Shown: positions 8,758 through 32,000, counted from the stretch's first letter. The stretch: DNA of 32,000 nt from Trichlorobacter lovleyi SZ (GCF_000020385.1 NC_010814.1:390001-422000), one strand, 5' to 3'. Notes: generated by a model not told the origin, from the sequence alone. Program-made: numbers and translations.

Positions 8758-8791
8758 TCCTTCCACAGGATCACTTACGTTTGAGATACAA

Positions 8792-8821: not shown

Positions 8822-8836
8822 GTGGCACGATAAATC

Positions 8837-8852: not shown

Positions 8853-8864
8853 TTCTTTGCAGGT

Positions 8865-10350: not shown

Positions 10351-10379
10351 GAAAAATCTATAAGCAAGGAGTGTTCCCG

Positions 10380-10820: not shown

Positions 10821-10886
10821 TTAAAAAAACGGCATGGCTGGGATGCTGCAATTGATAACATCTCAATATTACATCAAAAACAAAAC

Positions 10887-10901
10887 TGGCACGCTCTATG
10901 C
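10887..10901 (+). promoter_or_regulatory. Sigma-54 promoter (TGGCAC-N5-ATGC) upstream of nifB
   Basis: tggcacgctctatgc has a perfect -24 TGGCAC and GG-N10-GC spacing. It is intergenic, correctly oriented and about 85 nt before the nifB ATG. Confidence 0.5.
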
Positions 10902-10923
10902 CTAACAATAACCATCTATGGGC

Positions 10924-10967
10924 AACGGCGCCTGCGGGACTGATCTCCTGCGGCGCCGTTTCTGTTT
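10924..10967 (+). terminator. Intrinsic-terminator-like hairpin inside the nifB 5' leader
   Basis: aacggcgcc...ggcgccgtt forms a 9-bp perfect outer stem plus an inner gcggga/tcctgc stem with a 6-nt loop. It is followed by tctgttt, then the RBS AGGAG (10971-10975) and ATG 10984. Confidence 0.5.
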
Positions 10968-10983
10968 GAAAGGAGCGTACACC

Positions 10984-11805: not shown

Positions 11806-11857
11806 GACAGTATCAGCGGTTTCCTGACAACGGTACGAATGTGAGAAAGGTTTAGCC

Positions 11858-12658
11858 ATGCAGATCAGCAACTTCACTCCCAACGATATCCACCCCTTTT
11901 TGTCCATGGCAAAAGATGAAGGGTGGATCAGTACCCGCCGTGAGCTGGCCTTTTTGCTGGAACGTTCTCCGCAAGGGTGCCTGGTCTGTCATGACGGAGA
12001 AAAGCCGGTGGGGTTTGTCACTGCAGTCCGGCATGGCAAATCAGGCTGGATCGGGAACCTGCTGGTTGCAGCCGGTGAGCGTGGGCGTGGGATCGGCACG
12101 GCACTGTTCAAGCAGGCCATGCAGGTTCTGCAGCGCGCAGATGTACTGACGCTCTGGCTGACTGCATCCAGTGCCGGGCGGCCGATCTATGAACGCAATG
12201 GTTTCACGGTCTGTGACCGGATCCGGCGTTGGGAAGGGCTGGGTGGTGAACCTGAGCCTGCAGCAGCGGTAAAGAAGATGCATTCGGGCTGGGAAGAGAT
12301 TGATTTTCTGGGATGGGGGGATGACCGGACAGCCCTGCTGGCACATGCTGCCGATGGTGGTTCGGTACGCGGCAGCGAGGGCGGGTTTCTGGTTGTGCAG
12401 AGCCTTGGCAACCACCGCCAGATCGGTCCCTATGGCGCCTTGAACCTTCCAACGGCCGAGGCGCTGATGGACGGTATCCAGCAGCAGGGAGGGGCCACCA
12501 TGCTGGATGTACCGGCAGCAAACCGCGCCGCCTCAAAGCTGTTGACCAGCAGGGGCTTCACAGTCTGCAGCGAGGTGGATCTGATGTATGCGGGGCAGCC
12601 ACCGGCTTATCACCCGGAGTATATCTTCGGGCTGGCCAGTATGGGGAGTATGGGTTAA
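11858..12658 (+). CDS. Two-domain GNAT family N-acetyltransferase
   Basis: It has the acetyl-CoA motif LLVAAGERGRGIGTALF. At about 266 aa, its C-terminal half resembles the second GNAT-like domain of YitH-type proteins. Confidence 0.65.
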   Translation: MQISNFTPNDIHPFLSMAKDEGWISTRRELAFLLERSPQGCLVCHDGEKPVGFVTAVRHGKSGWIGNLLVAAGERGRGIGTALFKQAMQVLQRADVLTLWLTASSAGRPIYERNGFTVCDRIRRWEGLGGEPEPAAAVKKMHSGWEEIDFLGWGDDRTALLAHAADGGSVRGSEGGFLVVQSLGNHRQIGPYGALNLPTAEALMDGIQQQGGATMLDVPAANRAASKLLTSRGFTVCSEVDLMYAGQPPAYHPEYIFGLASMGSMG

Positions 12659-12674
12659 GCAAAGGAGCCTGACC

Positions 12675-13817
12675 ATGAAAACTTCAGAAATTATCATCGA
12701 TGATACCACCCTGCGGGATGGTGAGCAGACCGCCGGTGTGGTCTTTTCCCGCCGGGAAAAACTGGCCATTGCCCGGTTGCTGGACCTGATCGGTGTGCAG
12801 GAGATCGAGTGCGGCATTCCGGCCATGGGAGCGGATGAGCAGGACAGCATCCGCGCCCTGGTGGAAATGGAGCTGTCTGCCCGCCTGATCACCTGGAACC
12901 GGGCCCTGATCCCTGAGATTCAGGCCAGTATTGACTGCGGTATCAAGGCGGTGGATATCTCGCTCTCGGTATCGGATCAGATGATCAGCCGCAAGCTGAA
13001 AAAAGACCGCACTGCAGTCAAAGAACAGCTGAAAACAGCCCTGGGCTTTGCCAGACAGCATGATCTGTATGTGTCGGTTGGTGGTGAAGATGCCAGCCGG
13101 GCTGATCTGGGCTTTCTGGTGGAACTGCTGCAGATCACCCGCGAACTGGGGGGGGACCGCTTCCGCTTCTGCGATACCCTGGGCATCATGGACCCCTTCA
13201 GCATGTACGACAAGGTGGCCTGGCTGCGGGCCGCCGTGCCTGAAGTGGAGATTGAGGTCCACACCCACAATGATCTGGGCATGGCCACGGCCAATGCCAT
13301 TGCCGGCATCAGGGCCGGTGCCCGTTTTGTGAATACCACCGTCAACGGCCTGGGTGAACGGGCCGGTAATGCCGCCCTGGAAGAGGTGGTGATGGGCTTG
13401 AAACATGCCTGCGGCATTGAAACCGGCATAGATACCCATCGTTTCCGTGAACTGTCACTGATGGTGGCCAAGGCCTCCCGGCGGGAGCTGCCTTCCTGGA
13501 AGGCGGTGGTGGGTGAGCGGGTCTTTGCCCATGAATCCGGGCTGCATGCCGATGGCGTACTGAAAGATCCCCACAACTACGAAGGGTTTGATCCGGCTGA
13601 AGTGGGGCTGGTGCGTCAGATTGTGGTGGGCAAACATTCCGGTGCCAGCGGCCTGATCGATCGCTACCGCAGCCTGGGGATTGTACTCTCCCGGGATGAT
13701 GCCGGTCTGTTGCTGCCGGTGGTACGGCTGGAGGCGTTGCGCCGCAAGCGTGACCTGAAAGACCGGGAACTGGTGAATATCTATCTGAACGGAGCAGAGC
13801 TGCTGAAGGCAGCCTGA
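12675..13817 (+). CDS. nifV: Homocitrate synthase (NifV)
   Basis: IIDDTTLRDGEQTAGVVF, HTHNDLGMATANAIAG and VNGLGERAGNAALEEV are HMGL-like/IPMS-homocitrate synthase motifs. Length is about 380 aa. It lies next to nifB, with AGGAG 7 nt upstream. Confidence 0.8.
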   Translation: MKTSEIIIDDTTLRDGEQTAGVVFSRREKLAIARLLDLIGVQEIECGIPAMGADEQDSIRALVEMELSARLITWNRALIPEIQASIDCGIKAVDISLSVSDQMISRKLKKDRTAVKEQLKTALGFARQHDLYVSVGGEDASRADLGFLVELLQITRELGGDRFRFCDTLGIMDPFSMYDKVAWLRAAVPEVEIEVHTHNDLGMATANAIAGIRAGARFVNTTVNGLGERAGNAALEEVVMGLKHACGIETGIDTHRFRELSLMVAKASRRELPSWKAVVGERVFAHESGLHADGVLKDPHNYEGFDPAEVGLVRQIVVGKHSGASGLIDRYRSLGIVLSRDDAGLLLPVVRLEALRRKRDLKDRELVNIYLNGAELLKAA

Positions 13818-13956
13818 TCCCGATCCCATTGCAAGGCGCAATCTTTGTTGGCTCGTCTTCGGCTCCTCAATGTACTGCGTGTACACCTGCGTCGCCGCAT
13901 TCCTTGCCACCTTGATATCATCCTTGAACTGGAATCGGAATAAAGGAGGACTAATT

Positions 13957-14190
13957 ATGTGTACATCAGGAACGACCGTACCGATTGCCGAGGCAGCTGC
14001 TTTGCTGGCCACCACTGAGACACGGGTGCTGATGATGCTGAAGAAAAATGAGCTGCAGGGTAATCAGGTTGATGGTGACTGGTTTGTTGATAAGGCATCG
14101 TTGCAGCTCTGCGGCAAACCGCTCCCGTCGGATATCGTCAAGAAGGGCTGTGGCGGCGGGTGTGGCAGCGGCGGTTGCGGCAGTCATTGA
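13957..14190 (+). CDS. Small helix-turn-helix protein with a C-terminal Cys/Gly-rich tail
   Basis: A strong RBS (AAAGGAGGA) lies 6 nt upstream. TVPIAEAAALLATTETRVLMMLKKNELQG is excisionase/MerR-type HTH-like. The tail is GCGGGCGSGGCGSH. Confidence 0.5.
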   Translation: MCTSGTTVPIAEAAALLATTETRVLMMLKKNELQGNQVDGDWFVDKASLQLCGKPLPSDIVKKGCGGGCGSGGCGSH

Positions 14191-14202
14191 TTCGAAATAT
14201 TG

Positions 14203-14321
14203 CCACAGAGAACACAGCGTTCTCAGAGAAAAGCAAAACCTCAAAATAATTTTGATGTTATCCCTGCAAAACAGGTTTTAGGGTTTTATTTGTCTCTCTG
14301 TGTGCTCTGTGCCCTCTGTGG
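14203..14321. repeat. Structured intergenic element bounded by imperfect inverted repeats (REP/MITE-like)
   Basis: CCACAGAGAACACAG (14203-14217) pairs with CTGTGCCCTCTGTGG (14307-14321) at 13/15. Internal hairpins include GAGAAC-acagc-GTTCTC, CAAAAT-a-ATTTTG and AAAAC-ag-GTTTT. Confidence 0.4.
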
Positions 14322-14345
14322 CTAACAGATTTGAAGGGGTGGCAT

Positions 14346-14636
14346 ATGCTCATCGTCAAGGCATTTGATCTGAAGTTCAAATATCGCAAGTATGTCGAAA
14401 CCCGCGACGAACCGAAATTTTCAGGCCTGCCTGATCCTGCGCCATTCAACCGGGATGATCTGTACGAGGTGCTGCCGATGATGGGGGCGGTGATGGATCA
14501 GCTTGGTACAGCGGACGGCGAGATCCTGAACCGGCTTGAAGATTTTCTCAACACCATGCCGCGTTTCATCACCAGTCGTGAGGAGACCTTCCACTATCTG
14601 GTGGGGTGTGGCAGCCAGTCGATGGAAGGATACTAA
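14346..14636 (+). CDS. Hypothetical protein (nif-neighbourhood, 96 aa)
   Basis: The ORF shows coding-like composition and the ATG is preceded by gaagggg. I recognise no family. Confidence 0.45.
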   Translation: MLIVKAFDLKFKYRKYVETRDEPKFSGLPDPAPFNRDDLYEVLPMMGAVMDQLGTADGEILNRLEDFLNTMPRFITSREETFHYLVGCGSQSMEGY

Positions 14637-14648
14637 CAGGAGGATAGT

Positions 14649-15080
14649 GTGGCCCGTATTACGTTTTATACAAAGATAGGATGCTTAACCTCACAGAAGC
14701 AGCTGGCGCTGTTGCAGGAGGCGGGGCATCAGGTGGTGCTGCAGGATCTGCTGGCCCATCCCTGGACCGCCGAGGAGCTGCGGTCCTACTTTGGTGATCT
14801 GCCGGTGCAGGATTGGTTTAATCCCAATGCCACACGTATCAAGTCGGGCGAGATTGATCCTGAGGCCTATGCGGCTGATGAGGCGCTTGCCGTGATGCTG
14901 CAGGATCACCTCCTGATCCGGCGGCCTCTGATGGAATCCGGCAACAGCAGACGATGCGGATTCGATCCGGCTGTTATCCATGACTGGGTCGGGCTTGCCA
15001 AGCATGGTGATGCCTTTGTGTTCAGGGGCGATCTTTCCAGCTGTTCCAATCCCGGCGCTGTGGCATCTGCCTGCCCTTGA
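14649..15080 (+). CDS. ArsC/Spx-family protein of the nitrogenase-associated type
   Basis: GTG start. It has an N-terminal ITFYTKIGCLTSQKQ thioredoxin-like fold and an LLIRRPL motif typical of the ArsC family. The nif context matches the 'nitrogenase-associated protein' subfamily. Confidence 0.65.
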   Translation: MARITFYTKIGCLTSQKQLALLQEAGHQVVLQDLLAHPWTAEELRSYFGDLPVQDWFNPNATRIKSGEIDPEAYAADEALAVMLQDHLLIRRPLMESGNSRRCGFDPAVIHDWVGLAKHGDAFVFRGDLSSCSNPGAVASACP

Positions 15081-15273
15081 CAGTCGCATACAGGACGTTA
15101 CTGGATGTTTCGAGTAGTGAAGTCTCTCTGGCGGCACCAGGTGTGATTTAAGACACCAATCGTATTTCAGGTGCTTATTGAATATAAGAGGTTTCTGGTC
15201 TACTATGACCTGAATGTCCGGCGACACACGGGTGTCGCTCTACATTCAATCATCAGCAGGGGAGTGTACCTCA

Positions 15274-16401
15274 ATGTCCATGAGATCTTGTATTCCGGCA
15301 GTACTCAGCTTGTTCAGCCTTCTGGTGGCCGGCTGTACGCACACGCTTCCTCCGCATCAGGAGGTGAACCAGGCCTTGCAGAAAACGCTGAATTCCAGCG
15401 GCTATAACTACACCTCCAAAAGCAGCATCACAAACCTGGCAGTGCCGGTCAAGGATCTGAAGACTGCTGCCTCCAAACAGCAGTATCTGGAAAAGAGTCT
15501 GGAGATGGCGCGGGGGCTTTCGATCATTGCTGATGGCGCCATTGACATGAAGAACAAAAAATCCGAGGTGCTGTACAACCTGCACTACGATCAGGACAAT
15601 GTCGAGGTTTCAATCAAGGTACCGCTGCTGTTTGATTATACCACCCAGACCCTGTATGTCGGCACAACCCTTTTTAACACCATCTTTCCGATGGCTCCGG
15701 GCAACAAAGGCAAGCTGATCAGGATTGATCTGAATGACCTGCTGAAACTTACCGGTGAGAAGTCTGACAAACTTAAAAACCTGCTCGGCAAGAAGTACTT
15801 TGATTCGGTTAACGAGGGATTGAAACAAGGGGTTTTAAAGGGCTTTGCCGGTCTGAAGGATGAGCGTTTCAGTGATCAGCCGCTTACGGGTGACGACAAG
15901 GCAGCGGGTCTGGTCAGGCATATCACGGTCAGACTGAATCATGAGGAGTCGGTTACGCTGCTGCTTACCATTGCAGACACCCTTATCCAGCGGCTGTACC
16001 AGGATGGTGTGCTGAGCAAGGAAGAGTACGGTACCCTGATGATCCTGACTGACAAGCAGAAAGTCGACACCTACCTGGCTACCTTCAGTATGGCTGTTAC
16101 CCTTGATATCGGGCTGGCATCAACAGGGCAGATCAGCCGGATTGAAAGCCGCTTCACGGTGGCGGGTAAGGACAACCGCTACCAGGTCGGTGTGGCGAAT
16201 ATCAGCCGGTTCAGCCGCTATGATGACCCGCTTTTTACGATCAGGCCTGAGCTGACCGGTACGGTTGACCATAAAGAGATTCTTGAGTCGATCCTGGCGG
16301 CCAGGGCAGCCCAAAAGGCCGAAGCAGAGGCAAAAAAGGCTAAAGAGCCCAAAGAGGCTGAACCTGAAGCACCCAAGGAAGAAAAGAAGATCGCTGAATA
16401 G
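15274..16401 (+). CDS. Lipoprotein of unknown function with a Lys/Glu/Ala-rich C-terminal tail
   Basis: The signal peptide MSMRSCIPAVLSLFSLLVAGC has an LVAGC lipobox. RBS aggggag lies 9 nt upstream. The tail is AAQKAEAEAKKAKEPKEAEPEAPKEEKK. Confidence 0.6.
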   Translation: MSMRSCIPAVLSLFSLLVAGCTHTLPPHQEVNQALQKTLNSSGYNYTSKSSITNLAVPVKDLKTAASKQQYLEKSLEMARGLSIIADGAIDMKNKKSEVLYNLHYDQDNVEVSIKVPLLFDYTTQTLYVGTTLFNTIFPMAPGNKGKLIRIDLNDLLKLTGEKSDKLKNLLGKKYFDSVNEGLKQGVLKGFAGLKDERFSDQPLTGDDKAAGLVRHITVRLNHEESVTLLLTIADTLIQRLYQDGVLSKEEYGTLMILTDKQKVDTYLATFSMAVTLDIGLASTGQISRIESRFTVAGKDNRYQVGVANISRFSRYDDPLFTIRPELTGTVDHKEILESILAARAAQKAEAEAKKAKEPKEAEPEAPKEEKKIAE

Positions 16402-16416
16402 GCTGCTTGGATTGAA

Positions 16417-16447
16417 GGCTGCTGGCCCCCAAAGGGTCAGCAGCTTT
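16417..16447. terminator. Hairpin between convergent genes (it overlaps the cowN-like stop)
   Basis: ggctgctggccc-ccaaa-gggtcagcagc forms an 11-bp stem with 1 mismatch and is followed by ttt. Confidence 0.45.
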
Positions 16448-16733
16448 CCGCCTCAATCCGGTCCAGCAGTGCCAGGGCCGGCTGGTCATCGTAGGTCTCG
16501 AACAGCTCTCTGATGTTATTGATATAGGCATGGACCAGATACAGCTCATCCTGACTGAAACCGCTGGTTTCATCCGGCTTATTGATCTTCTCCAGTTTGT
16601 CTTTAAACAGCTCCCAAAAGCGATTGGTCCTGGCAGGGTCATCAATATGGCGGCGGAGCAGCGCCACCAGCTTTCGTGCATTTGAGTCGCCATCAATCCC
16701 CACAAATGAAACATAGCGGTCAGGTTTACTCAT
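16437..16733 (-). CDS. cowN: CowN-like N2-fixation sustaining protein (protects nitrogenase from CO), tentative
   Basis: 98 aa. [40 protein letters not shown]...[13 protein letters not shown] fits my recollection of the CowN family pattern (DRYxSF..ID...NA......D....N.FW ... LL..IE.E.C). I could not run a search. Confidence 0.55.
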
Positions 16734-17158
16734 TGCAGTGCATCCAGCCGCAGGGCAAAGGTCAGATCACATCCCGCCAGGGGGTGATTACCATCCAGCG
16801 TTACTTCCTTCTGATCCGCCTCCAGAATCACCAATATCCGCTCTCTGCCGCCGCTGAATTCAATCCGCAGCTTTTCACCGATCCGCAGCTCCCGTTCAGC
16901 CGGAAACATCTCCCGCTTCACCTTGATGATATTGGCATCAAGGCGCGGCCCGTAGGCCTCTGCCGCAGGGATCAGGATATTCTTGGTCTCGCCCGCAGCC
17001 ATGCCGATGATGGCCTGTTCCAGCGCAGAAAAGACCTGGTCATTGCCGATGGTAAAGGTTAACGGGCCGCTGGTTTCGGTGCTGTCGAAGATCCGGCCGG
17101 TATCCAGGGTGCCGATATAACTGACCGTCACCGTACTGCCGTGTCGGGCCTGTTTCAT
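16730..17158 (-). CDS. FKBP-type peptidyl-prolyl isomerase, SlyD-like (no metal-binding tail)
   Basis: [18 protein letters not shown]...[21 protein letters not shown] and C-terminal [18 protein letters not shown] are present. ATG 17158 has GGAG 8 nt upstream. ATGA overlaps join it to both neighbours. Confidence 0.75.
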
Positions 17159-17478
17159 AGAGGTGTCTCCTTGTCTGGTTTTGGGCAGCCGCAGGCTCCG
17201 CAACTGCAGATCCGCCGGCCGCACCTGCTGCAGGCGGGGTTTTGGGGGTCCCGTCCGTCAACCGTCCTGCCGCAGGACGGACAGCTGTAGCGGTAGAAGG
17301 CAAAGCCGCAGTTGCAGCAGTACCGCATGCCGTCGGCATCCGGTTTGTCTGCGATATGTATTGATTCGCAGATCAGGCAGACCGAGGCCATCTCCGGGCA
17401 GTTTCTGATGCCGTCCCGCTGGGAACGGTACTTCCTGAACAGCCGTTTACCCTCTGCGCGGTCAATGGGTAGTGCCAT
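17155..17478 (-). CDS. Cys-rich (14 Cys in 107 aa) zinc-ribbon-like protein, function unknown
   Basis: ATG 17478 is preceded by GGAGG. It carries the CxxC pairs CLIC, CCNC, CPSC, CSRC and CSCGACGC. It is translationally coupled to the downstream FKBP gene. Confidence 0.5.
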   Translation of the reverse strand: MALPIDRAEGKRLFRKYRSQRDGIRNCPEMASVCLICESIHIADKPDADGMRYCCNCGFAFYRYSCPSCGRTVDGRDPQNPACSRCGRRICSCGACGCPKPDKETPL

Positions 17479-21992: not shown

Positions 21993-22625
21993 TCACGGAG
22001 AAACTCGTACCATGAACTCAATTACAGACTGAATCATGTTTGAAACCTGATCTTTTGTGTATTCCTGAAAATGGCCATGAGCAGCCTTATTTCTAAGGTC
22101 AAGCCACATAGTTACTGCCTTTTGGTCTAATTTTGAATAAACTTCTGCCTTAGCTAAATCTGAGTTTAAGCGATCAGCTTTCTTTGGACGCAATACGCCG
22201 TCTGTTTCAACCTCGATTTCTACTCCATTGCTTATTGCCAACTGACGTAAATGCTCCTCCAGAACACTTCCAGCAATTACTGCTGCAGGATCTTTGTAAT
22301 TCTGTGAGAGCAGATGCTGAGCCATTTCAATAAAATCCGAGAATATTTCAGCCGAGATCAAGCCCTTTAAGCTAAATAGCCAACCACCAGATATTTCCCT
22401 TTTTATTGAAGTTAATATTGCAATGCCAACTTCAGCGTCATGTTTATCAGTTCCATCTGCTGCCTTATGAAACTCAAGATAATGTGAATGATCTTTTCCA
22501 TATACTCTTTCAATGAAAGACAAGGCTGCAGATCTAAAGCCCTTCATGGCACCAGTATCTACCCATCCCCAGCCACTTCCGTCGCTTCTGTATGTCCTAC
22601 GAACCTCTTCTCCTTGTTGAATCAA
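21993..22625 (-). CDS. HEPN-like (DUF4145/Abi-type) protein with an Rx4H motif, probably 5'-truncated
   Basis: The C-terminal helical region ends in WLDLRNKAAHGH (R178-x4-H183, coded at 22077-22094). The first possible start is a TTG without an RBS, and the frame stays open a further 24 codons upstream, to the stop at 22698-22700 about 50 nt from the IS110 transposase ATG. Confidence 0.45.
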   Translation of the reverse strand: MIQQGEEVRRTYRSDGSGWGWVDTGAMKGFRSAALSFIERVYGKDHSHYLEFHKAADGTDKHDAEVGIAILTSIKREISGGWLFSLKGLISAEIFSDFIEMAQHLLSQNYKDPAAVIAGSVLEEHLRQLAISNGVEIEVETDGVLRPKKADRLNSDLAKAEVYSKLDQKAVTMWLDLRNKAAHGHFQEYTKDQVSNMIQSVIEFMVRVSP

Positions 22626-22751: not shown

Positions 22752-23861
22752 ATGGAAAAGTGTATCACGTATGTCGGGCTTGATGTTCACAAAAACTCCA
22801 TAGATGTCGCTTTGGCCGATGAAGGCCGTGACAAGGAAGTCCGTTACTACGGCACTATTGACGGCAGTCTTGATGCATTGGACAAAGTTCTCAGAAAACT
22901 GGTTTCTCGTGGTACCGAACTTCGATTCGTCTATGAAGCTGGCCCGTGCGGTTATGACATCTATCGGCACCTAACCCGTAAGGGTTTTGATTGTATCGTG
23001 GTTGCCCCTTCTTTGATTCCCAAGAAGAGCGGCAGCCGAATAAAGAATGATCGGCGTGATGCCGAGATGCTGGCCCGTCTGCACCGAGCAGGCGAACTGA
23101 CTCCGGTCTATGTTCCGCGCATCGAAGATGAGGCAATGCGCGACCTCTGCAGGGCCCGTATCGATGCAAAGAATGCTGAGCGAAAGGCCCGTCAGCAATT
23201 GAATGCATTTCTGCTGCGCAGCGGCTTCCGCTATAGCGGCAAAACACTCTGGAGTCTTGCCCATTGGCGTTGGATCTCCGACATACACATGACGCATTCC
23301 GCACAGCAGATCACCCTGCAGGAGTATGTGGATGCAGTCAGATCGAACACAGAGCGCGTTGATAGGATCACGGAACAGATTTGCCTGCTTGCTGCAGAAT
23401 GGCGACTTGGTCCGGTTGTCGAAGCGCTCCAAGCTCTGCGGGGAGTCTCTCTGGTAGTTGCCTCAACCACCGTTGCTGAGCTTGGTGACTTGAGTCGCTT
23501 TGACAATCCCCGACATCTGATGGCGTATCTGGGGCTTGTACCTTCAGAACACTCAAGTGGAGAGTCAACACAGCGAGGCGGTATAACCAAGACTGGCAAT
23601 GGACATGCACGCCGAATGCTGGTCGAAGCTGCCTGGTCGTATCGGTTGCCGGCACGGGTTAGCAGGCGACTTCGAGACCGACAACAGAATCTGCCGCAAG
23701 CGGTATGGGAGATTGCCTGGAAGGCACAGCTCAGACTTTGCGCCCGCTACAAACGACTTGTTACCAAAGGCAAGCAGGCACAGGTAGTCATTACCGCCAT
23801 TGCCAGAGAACTGTCCGCATTCATGTGGGCTATAGCCCAAGCAGTACCAGTCGCATCGTAA
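22752..23861 (+). CDS. IS110 family transposase (DEDD recombinase)
   Basis: N-terminal YVGLDVHKNSI, then FVYEAGPCGY, KNDRRDAEMLARL and C-terminal LRGVSLVVASTTVAELGDLSRFDNPRHLMAYLGLVPSEHSSGES are present. RBS AAGGAGG lies upstream. Confidence 0.9.
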   Translation: MEKCITYVGLDVHKNSIDVALADEGRDKEVRYYGTIDGSLDALDKVLRKLVSRGTELRFVYEAGPCGYDIYRHLTRKGFDCIVVAPSLIPKKSGSRIKNDRRDAEMLARLHRAGELTPVYVPRIEDEAMRDLCRARIDAKNAERKARQQLNAFLLRSGFRYSGKTLWSLAHWRWISDIHMTHSAQQITLQEYVDAVRSNTERVDRITEQICLLAAEWRLGPVVEALQALRGVSLVVASTTVAELGDLSRFDNPRHLMAYLGLVPSEHSSGESTQRGGITKTGNGHARRMLVEAAWSYRLPARVSRRLRDRQQNLPQAVWEIAWKAQLRLCARYKRLVTKGKQAQVVITAIARELSAFMWAIAQAVPVAS

Positions 23862-24174: not shown

Positions 24175-24218
24175 AGTATATTTGTGCGCACAACACTCCG
24201 GTTTGATTGAGGAAAGTT

Positions 24219-25301
24219 ATGCGCGGAACTGATGTCCAGAATGAAGCTCTTTTTGCCTATGTGACGCCTGAGTCATTTGTACCCAAGGATCATCCCCTGC
24301 GTGCTATTCGCAGTATGGCTGATCAGGCACTTTCCGAGATGAGCCCGCTCTTTGACAGCATGTATGCCGATTCCGGTCGTTCTTCCATTGCCCCGGAGAA
24401 GCTGCTGAAAGCACAACTGCTGATGATACTGTTCAGCATCCGCAGTAACCGGCAACTGGTAGAGCAGATCCGCTACAACTTCCTGTACCGCTGGTTCCTT
24501 GGCATGGGACTGGATGATGAAATCTGGGATCACTCCAGCTTCACTAAGAACCATGAACGGTTAATTGGCTCTGATGTGGCCGCAGAGTTTCTATCCCGTA
24601 TCCTTGCTCAGGCAGAGCGCAAGCGTCTCCTGTCCCGAGAGCACTTCACCGTTGACGGCACCTTGATTGAGGCATGGGCCTCCATCAAGAGCTTCAAGCC
24701 CAAAGACGGTCCGCCATCTGCCGGTGGTGGCAAAAATAAATCAGTTGATTTCAAAGGCAAACAACTCAAAAACGACACTCATTCTTCCAGCACTGATCCA
24801 AACGCCAGACTGTACCGCAAGGGCAACACCAAAGAGGCCAAGCTCTGCTACCAGGGACACACCTTGATGGAGAATAGAAACGGTCTGATCGTCAAGACCA
24901 GCGTCACCACGGCAACCGGTACCGGAGAGCGTGAAGCCGCCAAGGCCATGATCAGACAATTGCCTCGTACTACCCGGCGTATCACCGTCGGTGCAGACAA
25001 AGGATACGACACCGAAGGCTTTGTCAAAGAGCTCAGGCAAATCAACGTCACGCCGCATGTGGCTCAGAACAACACCAGAAGGAAATCAGGCATTGATGGC
25101 AGAACCACCGCTCATCCGAATTACAGCATAAGCCAAAGGATCAGAAAACGGATCGAGGAAGGCTTTGGCTGGATGAAGACCATCGGCAGACTGAGAAAGA
25201 CCATGTATCGAGGCATTGAGAAGATTGCCTGGCAGCTTGATCTCCATGCAGCGGCCTACAACCTGGTACGCATGAAAAACCTGGGGCTCGGTGTCACCTG
25301 A
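24219..25301 (+). CDS. IS5 family transposase (InsH-type N-terminal domain plus DDE domain)
   Basis: HPLRAIR...APEKLLKAQLLMILFSIRSNRQLVEQIRYNFLYRWFLGM is the transposase InsH N-domain. C-terminal GADKGYD and RKRIEEGFGWMK are DDE_Tnp motifs. ATG 24219 follows gaggaaag. Confidence 0.85.
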   Translation: MRGTDVQNEALFAYVTPESFVPKDHPLRAIRSMADQALSEMSPLFDSMYADSGRSSIAPEKLLKAQLLMILFSIRSNRQLVEQIRYNFLYRWFLGMGLDDEIWDHSSFTKNHERLIGSDVAAEFLSRILAQAERKRLLSREHFTVDGTLIEAWASIKSFKPKDGPPSAGGGKNKSVDFKGKQLKNDTHSSSTDPNARLYRKGNTKEAKLCYQGHTLMENRNGLIVKTSVTTATGTGEREAAKAMIRQLPRTTRRITVGADKGYDTEGFVKELRQINVTPHVAQNNTRRKSGIDGRTTAHPNYSISQRIRKRIEEGFGWMKTIGRLRKTMYRGIEKIAWQLDLHAAAYNLVRMKNLGLGVT

Positions 25302-25895: not shown

Positions 25896-26363
25896 TCAGA
25901 TTTTCTGTTTACCTTTGCTGCGTGTACTATCAGCCATAAGCTCGCTGGGCGACACGCTCCCGTCACGATTATTGTCCATCTTTTGCAGGGTGATCGTTGC
26001 GTCAGCAATCTCATCCGCATCAAGCTCACCGTTACGGTCCTGGTCAAATACCTGGATGAGCGGATGGCTTTTTTGAGGACTGAGCGAGGCTCCGGCATAC
26101 AGGGTAAAGAGCGATATGACAAGCCCGGCAGTTATGGCCATCAAGGATGCACGCTGTCGCACATATGAGGCAAAGGTTCTCCAGTTTACAGCCAGATGCA
26201 GCATGCCGGCTGCCATAAATGCATACCCGATCCATTCATGCAGGGCCTTGACGCCGCCGGTCTTGACGTGAAATGCCAGTAAGACACCGGATATCCCTAC
26301 AACCAGAAATGTTGTTAAAACGAGTGGACTTAGCATTGTGCGATGTTCTGTGCTGCTTATCAT
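25896..26363 (-). CDS. Membrane protein with two C-terminal EF-hand Ca-binding loops
   Basis: There are three or four N-terminal hydrophobic helices (DUF4405-like). These are followed by DQDRNGELDADEI and DNNRDGSVSPSEL, which are canonical DxDxDG-type EF-hand loops. Confidence 0.6.
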   Translation of the reverse strand: MISSTEHRTMLSPLVLTTFLVVGISGVLLAFHVKTGGVKALHEWIGYAFMAAGMLHLAVNWRTFASYVRQRASLMAITAGLVISLFTLYAGASLSPQKSHPLIQVFDQDRNGELDADEIADATITLQKMDNNRDGSVSPSELMADSTRSKGKQKI

Positions 26364-26654
26364 GGTGACTATTCTCCTTTGGGTTAGTGTTGAATATGCC
26401 TGAGGCGCATCAAGCCAGAGTCAGATGAATATGTTGTGAACGAATTGTGAAAAAATATGCACATAGCTCTTGCCGGTTTATGCCGGCTCGTCCCGGCTGA
26501 TTCTTCTGCCACTATGGGTATCCTGACGGATTAGTTCCCGGGCGCCCTGCTCATATTTGCCAAAAATTGCAGCAGGTATTTTGCTGCCGTCTGCGTGCTG
26601 AAACTAAAACAGCTTGAAACTATTAGGTGTTTATTGGTATATGACTTTGGCATG

Positions 26655-26678
26655 CGTTATGTAGTTAAGTATATAGCG
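26655..26678. promoter_or_regulatory. Candidate ModE operator (Mo-box) 1
   Basis: CGTTATGTAGTTAAGTATATAGCG is a 24-nt imperfect palindrome with TAT-rich half-sites. It lies 25 nt upstream of the methyltransferase ATG and shares the CGTTAT-N12-ATAnCG frame with boxes 2 and 3. Confidence 0.55.
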
Positions 26679-26702
26679 AGTCTGGAGAAGAGGGGGATTT
26701 TT

Positions 26703-27365
26703 ATGCAGATTGACGCCAAAAAATTCGACCTGATTGCCCGTAACGTCTTTGCCCCGGCCTATTCGTTGCTGGCGGAACAGATCATGGAGCGCACCGGTAT
26801 CATGAGTGGCCTCTGTCTGGACCTGGGCAGTGGCGGCGGCTATCTGGGGCTGGCCCTGGCCTGGAACAGCAAGCTGCGGGTCTGTCTGCTGGATGAGTCT
26901 GCAGAGATGCAGGCGATTGCCGAGCAGAATATCTACGACAAGCGGCTGGATAACCGGGTGGTGGCGCTGTGCGGCGATGTCCATTACCTGCCGCTCAAGA
27001 ACAACAGTGTCGATCTGGTGGTCAGCCGCGGTTCGGTCTATTTCTGGGATGATCTGGCCCAGGTGCTGCGAGAGATCTGGCGGGTGCTGGCGCCGGGCGG
27101 TCAGGTCTGCATCGGCGGCGGTTTCGGTTCAAAGGCGCTGAAGGATGAGATCGTCGCCAAGATGCGCCAGACTGAGCCGGACTGGCAACCCAGGTGCGGA
27201 AAGTTTGATGACGCATGTTTCCATGACGCCGTCAAGCTGGCCGGTATACCCGACGCAGAGCTGCTGAAAGACGAAAGCGGTACCTGGCTTATTTTTAAGA
27301 AGCCGTTTGAGTATCTGTTGGAGCGGATGGCAGACAATTACGTCACTGCCTGTGACTACAAATGA
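26703..27365 (+). CDS. Class I SAM-dependent methyltransferase
   Basis: It has motif I CLDLGSGGGYLGLALA, the post-I acidic LLDES, and VVSRGSVYFW...LAPGG (Methyltransf_11/25-like). ATG 26703 follows gaggggg. Confidence 0.8.
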   Translation: MQIDAKKFDLIARNVFAPAYSLLAEQIMERTGIMSGLCLDLGSGGGYLGLALAWNSKLRVCLLDESAEMQAIAEQNIYDKRLDNRVVALCGDVHYLPLKNNSVDLVVSRGSVYFWDDLAQVLREIWRVLAPGGQVCIGGGFGSKALKDEIVAKMRQTEPDWQPRCGKFDDACFHDAVKLAGIPDAELLKDESGTWLIFKKPFEYLLERMADNYVTACDYK

Positions 27366-27375
27366 GGAAGATTGT

Positions 27376-27732
27376 ATGACGATTCAGGATGGCATACGCA
27401 GCTTGCTGTGCAGTGTGACGGCCTTGGCCCTGCTCGCCCTGCCGCTGATTAGTGAGGCCCGCACCATTACCGATATGACCGGCAGGAAGGTGCAGGTGCC
27501 GGATCGGATCACCAGGGTTTACGCCAGCTCGCCTCCTGCCACCTATCTGCTGTACGCCCTGGACCCGGCGCTGATTGTCGGCCTGAATTTCCCTCTGAAC
27601 GAGACCGAGGAGCGTTTTCTAAAACCTGCGGATAGCAGATTCCGCACGGCTGTCCGAAGGAGTGCTGCATTTATGATCACAACAAAGCAATGCGTGTTGC
27701 CAGAACAGGGCAGGCAACTGATTAGTACATGA
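27376..27732 (+). pseudogene. 5' fragment of a periplasmic substrate-binding protein gene (FecB/BtuF-type, cluster A), apparently truncated
   Basis: A signal peptide plus ITDMTGRKVQVPDRITRVYASSPPATYLLYALDPALIVGLNFPL is the typical N-terminal strand-helix of siderophore/cobalamin-type binding proteins. After about residue 85 the sequence becomes non-homologous-looking and stops at 118 aa, whereas the family is normally about 300 aa or longer. Confidence 0.45.
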
Positions 27733-27824
27733 AATTACAGTCTGTTATGCCCGGCTTTGTTTTGGCTTGTGTTATGCACCCTTCACAGAACTATGAAAAC
27801 TCTCAGCGAAGAGGGAGTACCCCC

Positions 27825-28811
27825 ATGATTGGTGCTGGATTGAATCTGCTGGCATTACTGCCCTGTCCGGTCAAGGTGCCGATTGAACAGGCCTTTGACG
27901 AATACCTGGCCACCTTGCCGCCTGAGCGTGCAGCCGCGCTGCGCTGCCAGCTGGAAGGAAACGCCAATATTGAGTCGGATTATTACAACACAGTGGAGCA
28001 ACTGACAGAGCTGGACCAGTTTCCGGACATCATCATCTCCCCCGGTTTCAACAGTCTCTTTGAACGTCCCTTTGTGGAGCGGTTCATCCAGACCAACCGG
28101 TTTGTCAGCGTCAACGACTATGCCGGTGACCGGCATCTTTCAGCACTGGGGGTCTGTGATCCCACCGGGCATTACACCATGCTGGCCATGAACCTGCTGG
28201 TGCCGGTGGTGGATCACCGCCGCCTGGGGGGTCGTCCGGTGCCCCGCTGCTGGGCTGATCTGCTCAAACGGGAGTACGAGAACAGTCTGGCCATCCGTGG
28301 CCATAAGGACGGCACCTTTTGTGAGACCCTGCTGCTGGCCATCTACAAGGATACCGGCGTGGAAGGGCTGCGCACGATGGGCAGGAATGTCCGTTATGGC
28401 TGGCATCCTTCCCAGATGGTCAAGGCTGCCCTGGGCAGCAGCGCTGATGCGCCGGCCATCAGTGTCATGCCGCTCTTTTTTGCCCAAACCCTGGTTGGCA
28501 AGGAGCAGTACAGCATCATCTGGCCCGACGACGGTGCCCTGATCAGTCCGGTGACTATGCTGGTCAAGACAGAAAAACGGGCTGAACTGGATGACCTGCT
28601 GGCGTTCTGGGCTGGTCCGCAGGTGGCGTCCATCTTCAGCGGCGCCTTTTTCCCGGCGGTCCACCCGGGGGTGGATAATCAGCTGCCCGAGGCCGCAACC
28701 TTCAAATGGATCGGTTGGGATTACATCATCAACAATGATATCAAAAAGCTGATCAGCGGCGTGAATGCTGCCTTCCGGCAGGGCCGTGGGGAGAACATCA
28801 GATGCGCCTGA
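27825..28811 (+). CDS. PBP-fold (ABC substrate-binding-like) protein, apparently without a signal peptide from the preferred start
   Basis: ATG 27825 has GAGGGAG about 8 nt upstream. N-terminal LNLLALLPCPVKVPIEQAF matches my recollection of a cytoplasmic PBP2-like family. The alternative ATG 27729 has no RBS and would add MKLQSVMPGFVLAC, which resembles a lipobox. Confidence 0.55.
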   Translation: MIGAGLNLLALLPCPVKVPIEQAFDEYLATLPPERAAALRCQLEGNANIESDYYNTVEQLTELDQFPDIIISPGFNSLFERPFVERFIQTNRFVSVNDYAGDRHLSALGVCDPTGHYTMLAMNLLVPVVDHRRLGGRPVPRCWADLLKREYENSLAIRGHKDGTFCETLLLAIYKDTGVEGLRTMGRNVRYGWHPSQMVKAALGSSADAPAISVMPLFFAQTLVGKEQYSIIWPDDGALISPVTMLVKTEKRAELDDLLAFWAGPQVASIFSGAFFPAVHPGVDNQLPEAATFKWIGWDYIINNDIKKLISGVNAAFRQGRGENIRCA

Positions 28812-29488
28812 TAACCGTGGCAGGGCCGCCCTCTTCGGGCAAGACCGCCATCATCTGCAAGACTGCTGAGGCGCTGCAGGCCGATGGTGTCTCTGTTGGT
28901 GTGATCAAGTTTGACTGTCTCTCGTCAGGGGATCAGGCACTGTACGAGCGGCGCGGCATCCCGGCCCGTACCGGGCTGTCCGGCAACCTCTGCCCGGATC
29001 ATTTCTATGTCAGCAACATTGAAGAATGTCTGGATTGGGGCCTGCAGAGCGGCTTTGATCTGCTGATCAGCGAGAGCGCAGGTCTGTGCAACCGGTGCGC
29101 CCCCCATATCAAGGAGGTCTGCGCGGTCTGCGTGATCGATAACTTAAGTGGTGTGGAGACCCCGCGCAAGATCGGTCCGATGCTGAAGATGGCTGATATT
29201 GTGGTGATTACCAAGGGCGATATCGTCTCCCAGGCAGAACGTGAGGTCTTTGTCCACCGCATCCGTCAGGTCAACAGCAGTGCCGTGATCATCCATGTCA
29301 ACGGCCTGACCGGCCAGGGAGGCCATGAGCTGGGGCGGCTGCTGCAAGATGCTGCTGCGGTTGATTCGCTGCAGGGCAAACTGCTGCGCTTTTCCATGCC
29401 GGCCGCACTCTGCTCCTACTGTCTGGGACAACGCCGGATCGGCGCTGATTTTCAGATGGGTAACGTCAAGAAAATGGAATTGGGGTAG
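28802..29488 (+). CDS. G3E-family P-loop GTPase (HypB/UreG/CobW-like metallochaperone type)
   Basis: Walker A GPPSSGKT, a LLISESAGLCNRCAP block comparable to HypB ENVGNLVCPA, and TKGD in place of NKxD are present. It overlaps the upstream stop by 10 nt. Confidence 0.7.
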   Translation: MRLITVAGPPSSGKTAIICKTAEALQADGVSVGVIKFDCLSSGDQALYERRGIPARTGLSGNLCPDHFYVSNIEECLDWGLQSGFDLLISESAGLCNRCAPHIKEVCAVCVIDNLSGVETPRKIGPMLKMADIVVITKGDIVSQAEREVFVHRIRQVNSSAVIIHVNGLTGQGGHELGRLLQDAAAVDSLQGKLLRFSMPAALCSYCLGQRRIGADFQMGNVKKMELG

Positions 29489-29493
29489 CCGCT

Positions 29494-30495
29494 ATGGAAC
29501 GCACCTATGCCGCTATGACCCTTGAGCGGTTGTTTAGCGAACATCCCCATGCACGGGAGTTCTTTTCTGCCCTTGGCCTGTCCGCACTGCCTGAAGACCA
29601 GACCCTGGGCAGAACCGTGGCGGCACTGGATGAAGAGCTGCTGTTGGATGTGGGGATTGAACGCCAGGAGCTGTTGGGACAGTTCTGCGACTACATGGCA
29701 GGGGTGGAACGGCTGCGCAACCAGCAGCAGGCTCTGGTCTCATCGGTCACGGTGCTGGGAGGGCATGACAAGAGCGGCAATCCTGAAAACTTCAGGCTTG
29801 AACTGCGGCCCGGCGAGGTGACCTGCATTGTCGGTCCCACCGGATCAGGCAAGAGCCGCTTTCTGGCAGATATAGAATGGCTGGCCCAGGGGGATAGCCC
29901 CACCGGACGGACGGTCCTGATTAACGGAGCGGCCCCTGACCTGGCCCGGCGCTATGCGGTGGAGCAGAAACTGGTGGCCCAGCTCTCCCAGAACATGAAC
30001 TTTGTGATGGACCTTTCGGCGGAAGAGTTTATCCGGCTGCATGCTGAAAGCCGGATGATAGCTGATCCGGCTGCCATCACCGCCACTATCCTTGAGCTGG
30101 CCAACAGTCTGGCCGGTGAGCAGTTCACCCCGGTCACGCCGGTCACAGCCCTGTCCGGCGGCCAGTCCCGCGCCCTGATGATCGCTGACGTGGCCTGCCT
30201 CAGTAGCTCGCCGATCGTGCTGATTGATGAGATCGAAAACGCAGGGATCGATCGCAAGCGGGCGTTGTCGTTGCTGGCGGATCAGGACAAGATTGTGCTG
30301 ATGGCCACCCATGACCCGATCCTGGCCCTGATGGGGCAGCAGCGGCTGATCTTCAAGAATGGCGGTGTCTCCAGCATCCGCAGCACCAGCCCGGCAGAGC
30401 GGGCCAACCTGACCCTGTTTGAACAGATGGATGCACGCCTGACTGCAGTGCGCCATGCCCTGCGCAACGGGGAAGAGATAGCAGGAAACTTCTGA
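29494..30495 (+). CDS. ABC-type ATPase with an about 100-aa N-terminal extension (DUF1858-like)
   Basis: Walker A GPTGSGKS, signature LSGGQSRAL, Walker B IVLIDEIENAGID and H-loop ATHDP are present. The N-terminus TLERLFSEHPHAREFFSALGL resembles DUF1858. No permease gene is adjacent. Confidence 0.75.
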   Translation: MERTYAAMTLERLFSEHPHAREFFSALGLSALPEDQTLGRTVAALDEELLLDVGIERQELLGQFCDYMAGVERLRNQQQALVSSVTVLGGHDKSGNPENFRLELRPGEVTCIVGPTGSGKSRFLADIEWLAQGDSPTGRTVLINGAAPDLARRYAVEQKLVAQLSQNMNFVMDLSAEEFIRLHAESRMIADPAAITATILELANSLAGEQFTPVTPVTALSGGQSRALMIADVACLSSSPIVLIDEIENAGIDRKRALSLLADQDKIVLMATHDPILALMGQQRLIFKNGGVSSIRSTSPAERANLTLFEQMDARLTAVRHALRNGEEIAGNF

Positions 30496-30586
30496 TCCGT
30501 GGATGTACGCAGAGAGCTGCCAATATTTATAACGTTATTGAATGGTTATCTGCAAGTTTTGAGTCTGTATGATGCGCCAGATCGGT

Positions 30587-30603
30587 TGGCCCAGCCGTTG
30601 CAT
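30587..30603 (+). promoter_or_regulatory. Sigma-54-like promoter (TGGCCC-N5-TTGCAT) upstream of modE
   Basis: tggcccagccgttgcat has GG-N10-GC spacing and a perfect -12 TTGCAT. It is intergenic and about 180 nt upstream of the modE ATG. Confidence 0.35.
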
Positions 30604-30687
30604 ATAAACAAGAAGCGGATCTGCCCTGAGTACTTTTGAGCGATAGCGGCTGGGCAGTGCATGGACTTGTTGCCCGGCCGTATCAAG

Positions 30688-30711
30688 CGTTATTTAGATC
30701 TATACATAACG
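30688..30711. promoter_or_regulatory. Candidate ModE operator (Mo-box) 2
   Basis: CGTTATTTAGATCTATACATAACG has perfect outer arms CGTTAT/ATAACG. It lies 70 nt upstream of the preferred modE start. Confidence 0.55.
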
Positions 30712-30781
30712 TCATTTTGAGTATACTTTTCTCACTATGAACAGCCGTCAGGCAGGAAATCCTCATTCAGGGAGCGTCAGC

Positions 30782-31588
30782 ATGAACAGCGCAGGGACCG
30801 TAGAACTGAACGGGAATCTCTGGTTTACCAGGGACACCAGTAAATTTCTGGGGAACGACCGGATCGCCCTGTTGGAAAAGATCGATGAACTCGGTTCCAT
30901 CACCAGGGCTGCCAAGGCGGTTGGTATCAGTTACAAGACCGCCTGGGAGATCGTGAACCAGATCAACAATCTTGCGGCGGTGCCGTTGGTTGACCGTGCC
31001 ACCGGAGGGAAAGGGGGAGGCGGCGCCAGCCTGACCGTAACAGGTCGCGAGGTGCTGGAACAGTTTCGTGTTGTGCAGGAGGAACACGGAAAATTTTTGA
31101 AAAACCTGGATATGCGTCTTGGTGACACCAACAATCTGTACCAATTTTTACGGAGGATTTCCATGAAAGTCAGCGCACGTAACGTGTTCAGCGGTACCGT
31201 CACATCCATTGCCAAAGGGGCCGTGAACGCCGAGGTTTCACTTGGCCTGAAAGGTGCTACTGCCATTACCGCCGTGGTAACCAACGGCGCAATCACTAAC
31301 CTTGGCCTGCAGGAGGGCATGTCTGCCTATGCGATTGTCAAGGCCAGTTCCGTGGTAATCGGCACAGATCTGGCAGAAGCAAAGCTCAGCACCCGGAATC
31401 AGCTGACCGGTACGATTGCCAAGCTGGTTGAGGGACCGGTCAGTTGTGAGGTTGATCTGGAGCTGCCCGGTGGCAACACCATCAGCGCCGTGATTACCGA
31501 TGGCAGCGCCAAACGGCTGGGCTTGAAGGTTGGCGGCACGGCAACGGCTCTGTTTAAGGCTTCCAGCGTGATTTTAGGGGTCAGCTGA
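30782..31588 (+). CDS. modE: Molybdate-dependent transcriptional regulator ModE (HTH plus two Mop/TOBE domains)
   Basis: RIALLEKIDELGSITRAAKAVGISYKTAWEIVNQINN...ATGGKGGGGASLT is the ModE N-domain. Two copies of SARNVFSGTVTSI...AIVKASSVVIG-type Mop repeats follow. ATG 30782 has GGGAG upstream; ATG 30737 is an alternative start. Confidence 0.85.
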   Translation: MNSAGTVELNGNLWFTRDTSKFLGNDRIALLEKIDELGSITRAAKAVGISYKTAWEIVNQINNLAAVPLVDRATGGKGGGGASLTVTGREVLEQFRVVQEEHGKFLKNLDMRLGDTNNLYQFLRRISMKVSARNVFSGTVTSIAKGAVNAEVSLGLKGATAITAVVTNGAITNLGLQEGMSAYAIVKASSVVIGTDLAEAKLSTRNQLTGTIAKLVEGPVSCEVDLELPGGNTISAVITDGSAKRLGLKVGGTATALFKASSVILGVS

Positions 31589-31616
31589 TGTAGACAAAGG
31601 CACCCCCCCTCAATCC

Positions 31617-31662
31617 CCCCTTGTCAATGGGGAGGTTTTGTAGGCTCTCCCCTGACAAGGGG
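31617..31662. repeat. GC-rich palindromic element downstream of modE (REP-like / possible terminator stem)
   Basis: ccccttgtcaatggggag...ctcccctgacaagggg has arms CCCCTTGTCA/TGACAAGGGG and GGGGAG/CTCCCC with a small bulge. Confidence 0.4.
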
Positions 31663-31741
31663 AGCGGGGAGGGGCTGCAAGGCTGGGGCGGGCTACGTAC
31701 ACAAGGGGCATCAATAGAGCTGTCCCTTTTTTCGGCACTGT

Positions 31742-31765
31742 CGTTATATTTTGAGCACCATAACG
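31742..31765. promoter_or_regulatory. Candidate ModE operator (Mo-box) 3
   Basis: CGTTATATTTTGAGCACCATAACG has the same CGTTAT-N12-ATAACG frame. It lies 18 nt upstream of the modD ATG. Confidence 0.55.
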
Positions 31766-31782
31766 GTGAACGGGGTCTTGGC

Positions 31783-32000
31783 ATGGTTAACTGTCTGGCG
31801 GATAGTGAGATAGAGCGGTTTCTGGAAGAGGATATCCCCTATGGCGATCTGACCACCCATCTGCTGGGGATCGGTCAACAGCAGGGAGAGATCCGTTTCA
31901 GTACCCGTCACCACACCACACTCTGCTGTACTGAAGAGGCAGCACGGGTGTTGACAAAATCCGGTTGCAAGATTACGTGGCAAACGGCCAGCGGCACCAG
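31783..32000 (+). CDS. modD: ModD (quinolinate phosphoribosyltransferase-family molybdenum-transport-associated protein), 5' part; it runs off the window
   Basis: My own translation, MVNCLADSEIERFLEEDIPYGDLTTHLLGIGQQQGEIRFSTR..., shows the ModD/NadC N-terminal pattern EDxxxGDLTTxxLGI. The frame is open to the window end. Confidence 0.7.
   Translation, partial: MVNCLADSEIERFLEEDIPYGDLTTHLLGIGQQQGEIRFSTRHHTTLCCTEEAARVLTKSGCKITWQTASGT

Follow-up and report, generated by a model that had tools for sequence, protein, structure and literature searches.

Which genes of Trichlorobacter lovleyi SZ answer to molybdate, and does their number include an operon of uncharacterised function that lies upstream of the regulator gene modE? 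The question is raised by a stretch of 32,000 nucleotides (nt) of this genome (GCF_000020385.1, NC_010814.1:390001-422000; hereafter the window), in which three copies of a 24-nt box, CGTTAT-N12-ATAnCG, precede a methyltransferase gene, modE and modD, respectively. The boxes are proposed here to be operators at which ModE, when molybdenum (Mo) is replete, would repress modE itself, the uptake operon modDAABC and the genes behind the first box, reaching a solute-binding protein/GTPase/ATPase trio by read-through; as a whole, we consider this account likely. Coordinates are those of the window, and the genes, boxes, promoter elements, and hairpin described between 26647 and 32000 lie on its + strand, the fusion junction discussed below having no strand.

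Three Boxes in One Frame

The boxes occupy positions 26655-26678 (box 1, CGTTATGTAGTTAAGTATATAGCG), 30688-30711 (box 2, CGTTATTTAGATCTATACATAACG), and 31742-31765 (box 3, CGTTATATTTTGAGCACCATAACG), and all are intergenic. No other place in the 32-kilobase (kb) window matches CGTTAT-N12-ATAnCG, the reverse strand of boxes 2 and 3 also matching by virtue of their palindromic nature. The pattern did not occur in 100 dinucleotide-preserving shuffles of the window, giving a chance expectation of 0. Scored with a position matrix, the boxes reach 26-30 bits (29.6, 26.3, and 27.9 bits for boxes 1, 2, and 3), and the runner-up site in the window 6.5 bits, which equals the background of shuffled sequence. 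These scores come from a matrix rebuilt with pseudocounts, because the first version followed the strict pattern too closely.

The distance from the end of the box to the start codon is 24 nt for box 1 (methyltransferase, ATG at 26703) and 17 nt for box 3 (modD, ATG at 31783). For box 2 it is 70 nt to the likely start of modE (30782), or 25 nt to an alternative ATG (30737). A sequence-only reading of this DNA had described three intergenic boxes with a common frame upstream of the methyltransferase operon, modE, and modD; its coordinates are exact, and domain searches agree with the genes it named.

Probable Identity of the Boxes as ModE Operators

The shared frame is the core of the published ModE consensus, atCGnTATATA-N6-TATATAnCGat, and the boxes stand in frame with the ModE site ATCGTTATgTcaTgAAggtTATAGCGtT predicted upstream of modDABC in Geobacter sulfurreducens (PMC545781 Table 6; PMC2700814). 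Relatives of the locus were gathered via alignment of homologues of SBP6, the solute-binding protein of the trio, and comprise 30 Geobacteraceae loci and 504 kb. In these, the strict pattern CGnTAT-N12-ATAnCG occurs 23 times, where 0.1-0.3 matches are expected (about 100-fold enrichment). Positions 7-9, which the search pattern leaves free, read R-T-A/T in the relatives, completing a half-site TATRTA.

When a matrix built from the boxes and those of the relatives is applied to 2.5 kb around modE-modA of Escherichia coli K-12, it returns a single match, CGTTATATTGTCGCCTACATAACG (26.6 bits), placed 19 nt upstream of modA, which we take from established knowledge to be the footprinted modA operator. 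This assumption draws as well on the consensus quoted in PMC2700814. Because the matrix recovers the E. coli operator alone in 2.5 kb, the boxes are predicted to be ModE operators of the E. coli type. Each is an imperfect palindrome some 24 nt long (CGnTATATA-N6-TATATAnCG) whose half-sites are TAYAT, and the recognition pattern is that of an experimentally defined operator, the one at E. coli modA. Box 3 lies in the control region ahead of molybdate transport genes, and a full-length ModE, with a DNA-binding domain and two Mop/TOBE domains, is encoded in the window. Control at the RNA level was considered and rejected, since Rfam searches of the region of the boxes at both gathering and permissive thresholds found no molybdenum cofactor (Moco), cobalamin, or other riboswitch.

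The earlier suggestion that these are plausible Mo-boxes is thus strengthened by the fit to the consensus, by the recovered E. coli modA operator, and by enrichment beside modE and mod genes in the 30 loci of the relatives. Boxes are also kept 5' of modE and modD in related loci, and the proposed autoregulation of modE agrees with the position of box 2 and with the conservation described next.

Boxes 2 and 3: modE and the Molybdate Uptake Operon

The modE gene (30782..31588) encodes a full-length ModE, in which domain searches find HTH_1 followed by two TOBE/Mop domains. The protein scores 149.6 bits against TIGR00638 (cut-off 55) and 94.2 bits against TIGR00637, just under the cut-off of 98.5. 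The start at 30782 is preceded by GGGAG and is also the one called in L001, a contig from a metagenome-assembled genome (MAG); no ribosome-binding site precedes the ATG at 30737, which is in frame. In about 9 of 12 loci a box lies 5' of modE or of the operon to which modE belongs (it is found upstream of modE in L008, L009, L010, L015, L016, L028, L034, and L035), and because of this recurrence autoregulation through box 2 is predicted to be a feature of the lineage. The upstream region of the window's modE cannot be aligned with that of its closest relatives. It includes a candidate sigma-54-type promoter, TGGCCCAGCCGTTGCA (30587..30602), for which a match to the pattern GG-N10-GC is weak evidence and which is not conserved in L008 or L009.

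The 5' part of modD occupies 31783..32000 (TIGR01334 ModD / QRPTase_N) and the gene continues beyond the window. In the identical contig L001 the complete modD is followed by modA, modA, modB, and modC, making box 3 the predicted operator of modD-modA-modA-modB-modC. A box stands 5' of modD or modA in about 11 of 11 related loci, and in three of them (L008, L009, L018) box 3 is nearly identical down to its spacer, TTTTGAGCAC.

Between modE and box 3 lies a terminator-like hairpin with a T-run (31705..31732), which would end the modE transcript; it is conserved in an alignment of six genomes, with compensatory changes in its stem, and is separated from the box by 8 nt. The terminator scan overlooked it on account of its 10-nt loop. 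Between the modE stop and the hairpin (31600-31690) is an insert of about 100 nt, a G/C-rich inverted repeat (ccccttgtcaatgggga...tcccctgacaagggga), which is absent in L008 and L018 and partial in L009, and may be a small repeat element.

A Deletion Fusion Behind Box 1

The first gene after box 1 encodes a methyltransferase of 220 amino acids (aa) dependent on S-adenosylmethionine (SAM) (26703..27365; Pfam Methyltransf_11/25, E = 4e-20), for which no specific NCBIfam equivalog was found. The next open reading frame (27376..27732, 118 codons) has no Pfam match and is the pseudogene remnant of a periplasmic binding protein, homologous over about its first 84 codons only. It shares 76-88% identity with the full-length Peripla_BP_2 proteins (349-354 aa) of loci L083 and L133 and is related to the product of L007 8517-9542. 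In L083 and L133 an operon that begins with the same box and the same promoter element encodes the methyltransferase, the full-length Peripla_BP_2 protein, a TonB-dependent receptor, a TonB-like protein, and a FecCD permease. Near-identical boxes stand 5' of methyltransferase orthologues in L083, L133, L064, and L121.

Comparison by blastn divides the region in two. Positions 26646-27631 are 74-80% identical to L133/L083, with homology beginning exactly at the -24 element next to box 1 (26646), and positions 27625-27900 are 89% identical to L007 5646-5920, the region upstream of SBP6 in Trichlorobacter thiogenes. Because the two flanks match different loci and overlap at 27625..27631, where the methyltransferase-binding protein head joins the native upstream region of SBP6, the 26.7-30.5 kb "operon" is read from these alignments as a deletion fusion with its junction at about 27628, and not as one ancestral operon. 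The deletion left only about 84 codons of the binding-protein gene and took away the genes for the TonB receptor, TonB, and the permease that L083/L133 retain. An assignment of the methyltransferase-binding protein operon to corrinoid uptake found no support, the CpaM score being 38 bits against a cut-off of 180 and no B12 riboswitch being present.

The SBP6-GTPase-ATPase Trio and Its Own Promoter

Beyond the junction, domain searches define three genes. SBP6 (27825..28811) is a cytoplasmic protein with a solute-binding fold (PF13343). The gene for a G3E-family (CobW/HypB/UreG-like) GTPase (28802..29488) starts within the end of SBP6, overlapping its stop, and is followed by that for a soluble ATPase of the ATP-binding cassette (ABC) type (29494..30495), which has an N-terminal extension of about 90 aa and no adjacent permease gene. 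This trio is the conserved core in about 24 of the 30 loci. SBP6 has no signal peptide and here lacks the N-terminal DUF1858 of most of its relatives, one of which has an ArsC-like domain fused to it and carries the name nitrogenase-associated in its source. The SBP6 of the window is 100% identical to a protein ascribed to T. lovleyi (formerly placed in Geobacter). Its AlphaFold model (predicted local distance difference test, pLDDT, 83) shows a generic binding-protein fold like that of FbpA, FutA, and AfuA, with no ligand indicated. Sequence searches of the PDB lead from the GTPase to UreG/HypB and from the ATPase to generic ABC proteins, at family level only, and the GTPase is by sequence a distant relative of the G3E metallochaperones. 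That the trio is an ABC importer was rejected, as the trio includes no permease gene in any of the roughly 24 loci and relatives of SBP6 carry DUF1858 instead of a signal peptide. The literature search found no paper that ties DUF1858 or the trio to nitrogenase.

The trio is probably under two promoters here, with a ModE box at the distal one only. The proximal one, P2 (TGGCTTGTGTTATGCA, 27763..27778), is a sigma-54-type promoter by its pattern (GG-N10-GC) and conservation, located 46 nt upstream of the SBP6 ATG and devoid of a ModE box. A vestigial box at P2 (TGTTATGCA...) was considered, as it resembles a degenerate left half-site, and was rejected, since it scores below 6 bits, which is background.

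Does the molybdate regulon then extend to the trio? The alternative is that box 1 serves the methyltransferase and the dead binding-protein gene alone, and that the trio is transcribed from P2 and is not regulated by Mo in this organism. This must be taken seriously, although we give it rather less than even weight. It accords with the assembly of the locus from two parts brought together by deletion and with the strong conservation of P2 and its leader in L007-L009 and L012, none of which has a methyltransferase gene upstream. P2 has no ModE box, and no box was found upstream of the trio in the closest relatives. Against it, the terminator scan found no terminator-like site between 26703 and 27825, nor within the operon, making read-through likely, and the more distant orthologous trios carry ModE boxes. 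In 12 of about 29 loci, the window and 11 other genomes, the gene that heads the trio operon has a box directly 5' of it. The head gene is SBP6 in six of these (L010, L015, L016, L019, L020, L026), a NifX-like Nitro_FeMo-Co protein in two (L014 and L025, fused to DUF1858 in L014), an ArsC-like "nitrogenase-associated" protein in three (L027, L029, L034), and in the window it is the methyltransferase. Across the family, Mo control of the trio is accordingly well supported, as far as predicted boxes go, and in this lineage it is uncertain. The claim that the 26.7-30.5 kb operon belongs to the molybdate regulon is supported by the boxes at the trio in 11 further loci and at the methyltransferase in L026 and several metagenome contigs; it is weakened where it treats the operon as a unit, given the fusion with a pseudogene and a trio that has its own box-free P2.

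A Probable Composite Promoter at Box 1

Directly abutting box 1 is TTGGCATG (26647..26654), a sigma-54-type -24 element by its match to the -24 half of the RpoN consensus. Together with positions 1-9 of the box it forms a composite, TTGGCATG followed without gap by CGTTATGTA. The arrangement is not peculiar to the window: TTGGCA[CT][GA] abuts the box in one register and orientation in 14 of 49 boxes, box 1 included, against about 0.05 expected. The sigma-54 consensus is mrNrYTGGCACG-N4-TTGCW, and the form given for RpoN of G. sulfurreducens is TTGGCACGGTTTTTGCT (PMC2725144). When TTGGCAYG joined to CGTTATGTA is compared with the consensus, the entire -24 half and the G of the -12 agree.

Metagenome contigs were scanned with the left part of the composite, the 17-mer TTGGCAYGCGTTATGTA, which gave 118 matches. 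The right ModE half-site is in register in 34 of these, and only these 34 were used, about 70% of the matches being chance or an unrelated repeat. The genes that follow the 34 composites are modE(-modABC), a nifH-like/NifX-like/activator/DraT set, or genes for a NifX-like protein, an ArsC-like protein, SBP6, or the methyltransferase. A separate sequence, TTGGCACGCGTTATGTAGTGGCACGAGCTTAC, is repeated almost unaltered at about 30 metagenome loci (L040, L046, L047, and L056 among them). It has two TGGCAC motifs and no right ModE half-site, and is unrelated to ModE boxes.

In loci with composites, canonical sigma-54-type sequences such as TGGCACGGCCCATGCA are found upstream of nifH-like genes. A palindrome, AAACAG-N8-CTGTTT, is located about 100-105 nt upstream of sigma-54-type promoters, be it P2 or a ModE composite, in four loci (L008 6708; L083 5905; L118 229; L130 233) and is a candidate site for an enhancer-binding protein; it was not found in the window. 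A gene for a GAF/sigma-54 activator is present in L007 and others and not in the window.

The promoter that holds the left ModE half-site in its spacer and -12 region is thus most likely of the sigma-54 type. The same letters can be parsed differently, with TTGGCA as a sigma-70 -35 hexamer and TATATA (26670-26675), after a 17-nt spacer, as the -10, in which case ModE would occupy the spacer and -10. This parsing can be read directly in the sequence and its geometry would predict repression equally, yet we regard it as unlikely. A consensus scan rejects it, the -10 lacking its final T, and a sigma-70 promoter scan of 26300-32000 found none acceptable at any box. The YG after TTGGCA is invariant, as in sigma-54 TGGCACG, and is not needed by a -35 hexamer. 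The supposed -10 reads GACATA or GCTATA in many relatives. The genes served are nitrogenase-associated, and the P2 and composite promoters of relatives have in common a palindrome near -100, an arrangement typical of enhancer-dependent promoters. The sigma-54 assignment would account better for the invariant YG, the variable "-10", and the palindrome of the relatives.

Predicted Regulation

The proposed control would operate as follows. With molybdate or tungstate in ample supply, a ModE dimer loaded with the oxyanion, the product of the gene between boxes 2 and 3, would bind each palindrome. Repression is the expected outcome because each box sits at or just downstream of a likely promoter core. 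Occupation of box 3 would switch off the modD-modA-modA-modB-modC uptake operon, and at box 2 ModE would repress its own gene. At box 1, which overlaps the spacer and -12 of the sigma-54-type promoter, bound ModE would keep the sigma-54 holoenzyme out. This promoter would drive the methyltransferase, the remnant of the binding protein and, by read-through, the SBP6/GTPase/ATPase trio; control of the trio by box 1 would depend on that read-through because the trio has a box-free promoter of its own.

Several observations pull the other way. The conserved P2 of the trio has no ModE box, and neither have the sequences upstream of the trio in the closest relatives (L007-L009, L011-L013), so that ModE control of the trio may be weak or lost in this lineage. 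The -12 of the composite at box 1 is GT (TGT) and not the nearly invariant GC (TGC). No enhancer-like site was found upstream of box 1 in the window, and no activator gene lies nearby. Boxes 2 and 3 are accompanied by neither a convincing sigma-70 promoter nor an abutting -24 element, which makes a repressing geometry there only presumed.

ModE can also activate, as it does at moaA, dmsA, and napF of E. coli. Activation instead of repression at one or more of the boxes would suit five relatives (L015, L016, L019, L025, L026), in which some 90-110 nt separate the box from a downstream TTGGCATG-N4-xTGTA, a position typical of an activator or enhancer. For the window it is improbable, as its boxes end 17-70 nt from a start codon, box 1 overlaps the promoter core, and Mo-dependent repression is the usual mode for mod transport and Mo-scavenging genes (established knowledge; PMC545781). 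An origin of the boxes as AT-rich palindromes arisen by chance, or as sites of an unrelated regulator, is for practical purposes excluded by the nil expectation in the window, the roughly 100-fold enrichment in related loci, the recovery of the E. coli modA operator, and the consistent tie of the boxes to modE and modABC, and has a very small probability indeed.

Nitrogen-Fixation Context

The first 20 kb of the window form a nif-accessory neighbourhood, especially at 8781-17224, where genes for an ANTAR response regulator, DraG, a radical SAM protein, a GNAT protein, NifV, an ArsC-like nitrogenase-associated protein, a CowN-like protein, and an FKBP are found. The matrix scan detected no ModE box in these 20 kb. 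Between the gene at 21993-22625 and a DUF4405/EF-hand gene are transposase genes of the IS110 (22752-23861) and IS5 (24207-25301) families; because the MAG contig L001, identical in other respects, has neither, they are strain-specific insertions.

In the relatives, boxes also stand 5' of a gene of the phosphate-porin family beside modE and of a cluster encoding nifH-like, NifX-like, sigma-54 activator, and DraT proteins. Genes for nifH-like and NifX-like proteins, a GAF/sigma-54 activator, DraT, and a protein like the nitrogenase alpha chain adjoin the mod/ModE cluster in L007 (9699-13550), L015 (10975-12893), and L028 (16402-19047), and in L007 a strong ModE box precedes the nifH-like/nitrogenase-like genes. 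This suggests Mo-repressed alternative nitrogenase genes in some Geobacteraceae.

Three features of the trio, its linkage to NifX-like and ArsC-like genes, its position beside a TonB/ABC uptake system, and its ModE boxes, suggest that the genes under the boxes may serve the supply of metal to nitrogenase when Mo is scarce. The cytoplasmic module of solute-binding fold, G3E GTPase, and ABC ATPase frequently occurs next to, or as a fusion with, NifX-like, DUF1858, and ArsC-like "nitrogenase-associated" proteins. A bolder proposal, which we offer as speculation with a low chance of being correct in full, is that in the Geobacteraceae a ModE box joined to a sigma-54-type promoter forms an AND gate for nitrogen limitation and Mo limitation. 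The gate would govern a dedicated route of metal to nitrogenase in which chelated metal is taken up by a TonB/ABC system led by the methyltransferase, and the module, as a functional substitute for NifQ or Mo-storage proteins, delivers Mo (or V/Fe) for the assembly of the cofactor; the T. lovleyi version of this route would be half decayed.

The value of the locus is in its targets, namely the nitrogenase-associated trio and the methyltransferase-headed TonB uptake operon, which bear ModE boxes, often joined to sigma-54-type promoters, across many Geobacteraceae. They offer a handle on the coupling of Mo supply to nitrogen fixation in environmentally important iron reducers and dechlorinators, and a first functional clue for the DUF1858/SBP_bac_6/G3E GTPase/ABC ATPase module.

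Comparison with Known ModE Systems

The element itself is an already known one, predicted here to be the ModE operator, and box 3 would be the orthologue of a site predicted in 2004. New as predictions are the co-regulated gene set, the joining of ModE boxes to sigma-54-type promoters in a fixed register, and the decayed, fused T. lovleyi locus. The literature search retrieved no RegPrecise description of a ModE regulon in the Desulfuromonadales.

Like the boxes of the window, the E. coli modABC operator CGTTATATTGTCGCCTACATAACG has the 24-nt frame, there CGTTAT-N12-ATAACG, with TATAT/TACAT half-sites, and it ends 19 nt before modA, boxes 1 and 3 ending 24 and 17 nt before their genes. By contrast, modE of E. 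coli has no adjacent box of its own and the promoter is of the sigma-70 type, whereas one box in T. lovleyi is fused to a sigma-54-type -24 element.

The site at modDABC of G. sulfurreducens (Rodionov et al., 2004, PMC545781; Aklujkar et al., 2009, PMC2700814) is closer still, sharing the motif CGTTATgTcaTgAAggtTATAGCG, a modD gene in first place, and the same organism family. In those studies the modDABC site alone is reported as robust; the other sites on the "ModE regulon" list for that organism (PMC2700814 Table S3) are mostly weak, and none belongs to the further genes that bear boxes here.

A third comparison is with the Mo-boxes of MopA/MopB in Rhodobacter capsulatus and with ModE control of alternative nitrogenases, e.g., in Methanosarcina acetivorans (PMC12327845), where genes related to nitrogen fixation and regulator genes undergo Mo-dependent repression. 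The relatives of the present locus are akin to these systems, with boxes 5' of the nifH-like/NifX-like/sigma-54 activator/DraT cluster and beside genes like those of alternative nitrogenases, although the window itself, unlike M. acetivorans-type systems, has no alternative nitrogenase genes. Also unlike these systems, the predicted targets here include the SBP6/G3E GTPase/ABC ATPase module and a TonB uptake operon led by a methyltransferase.

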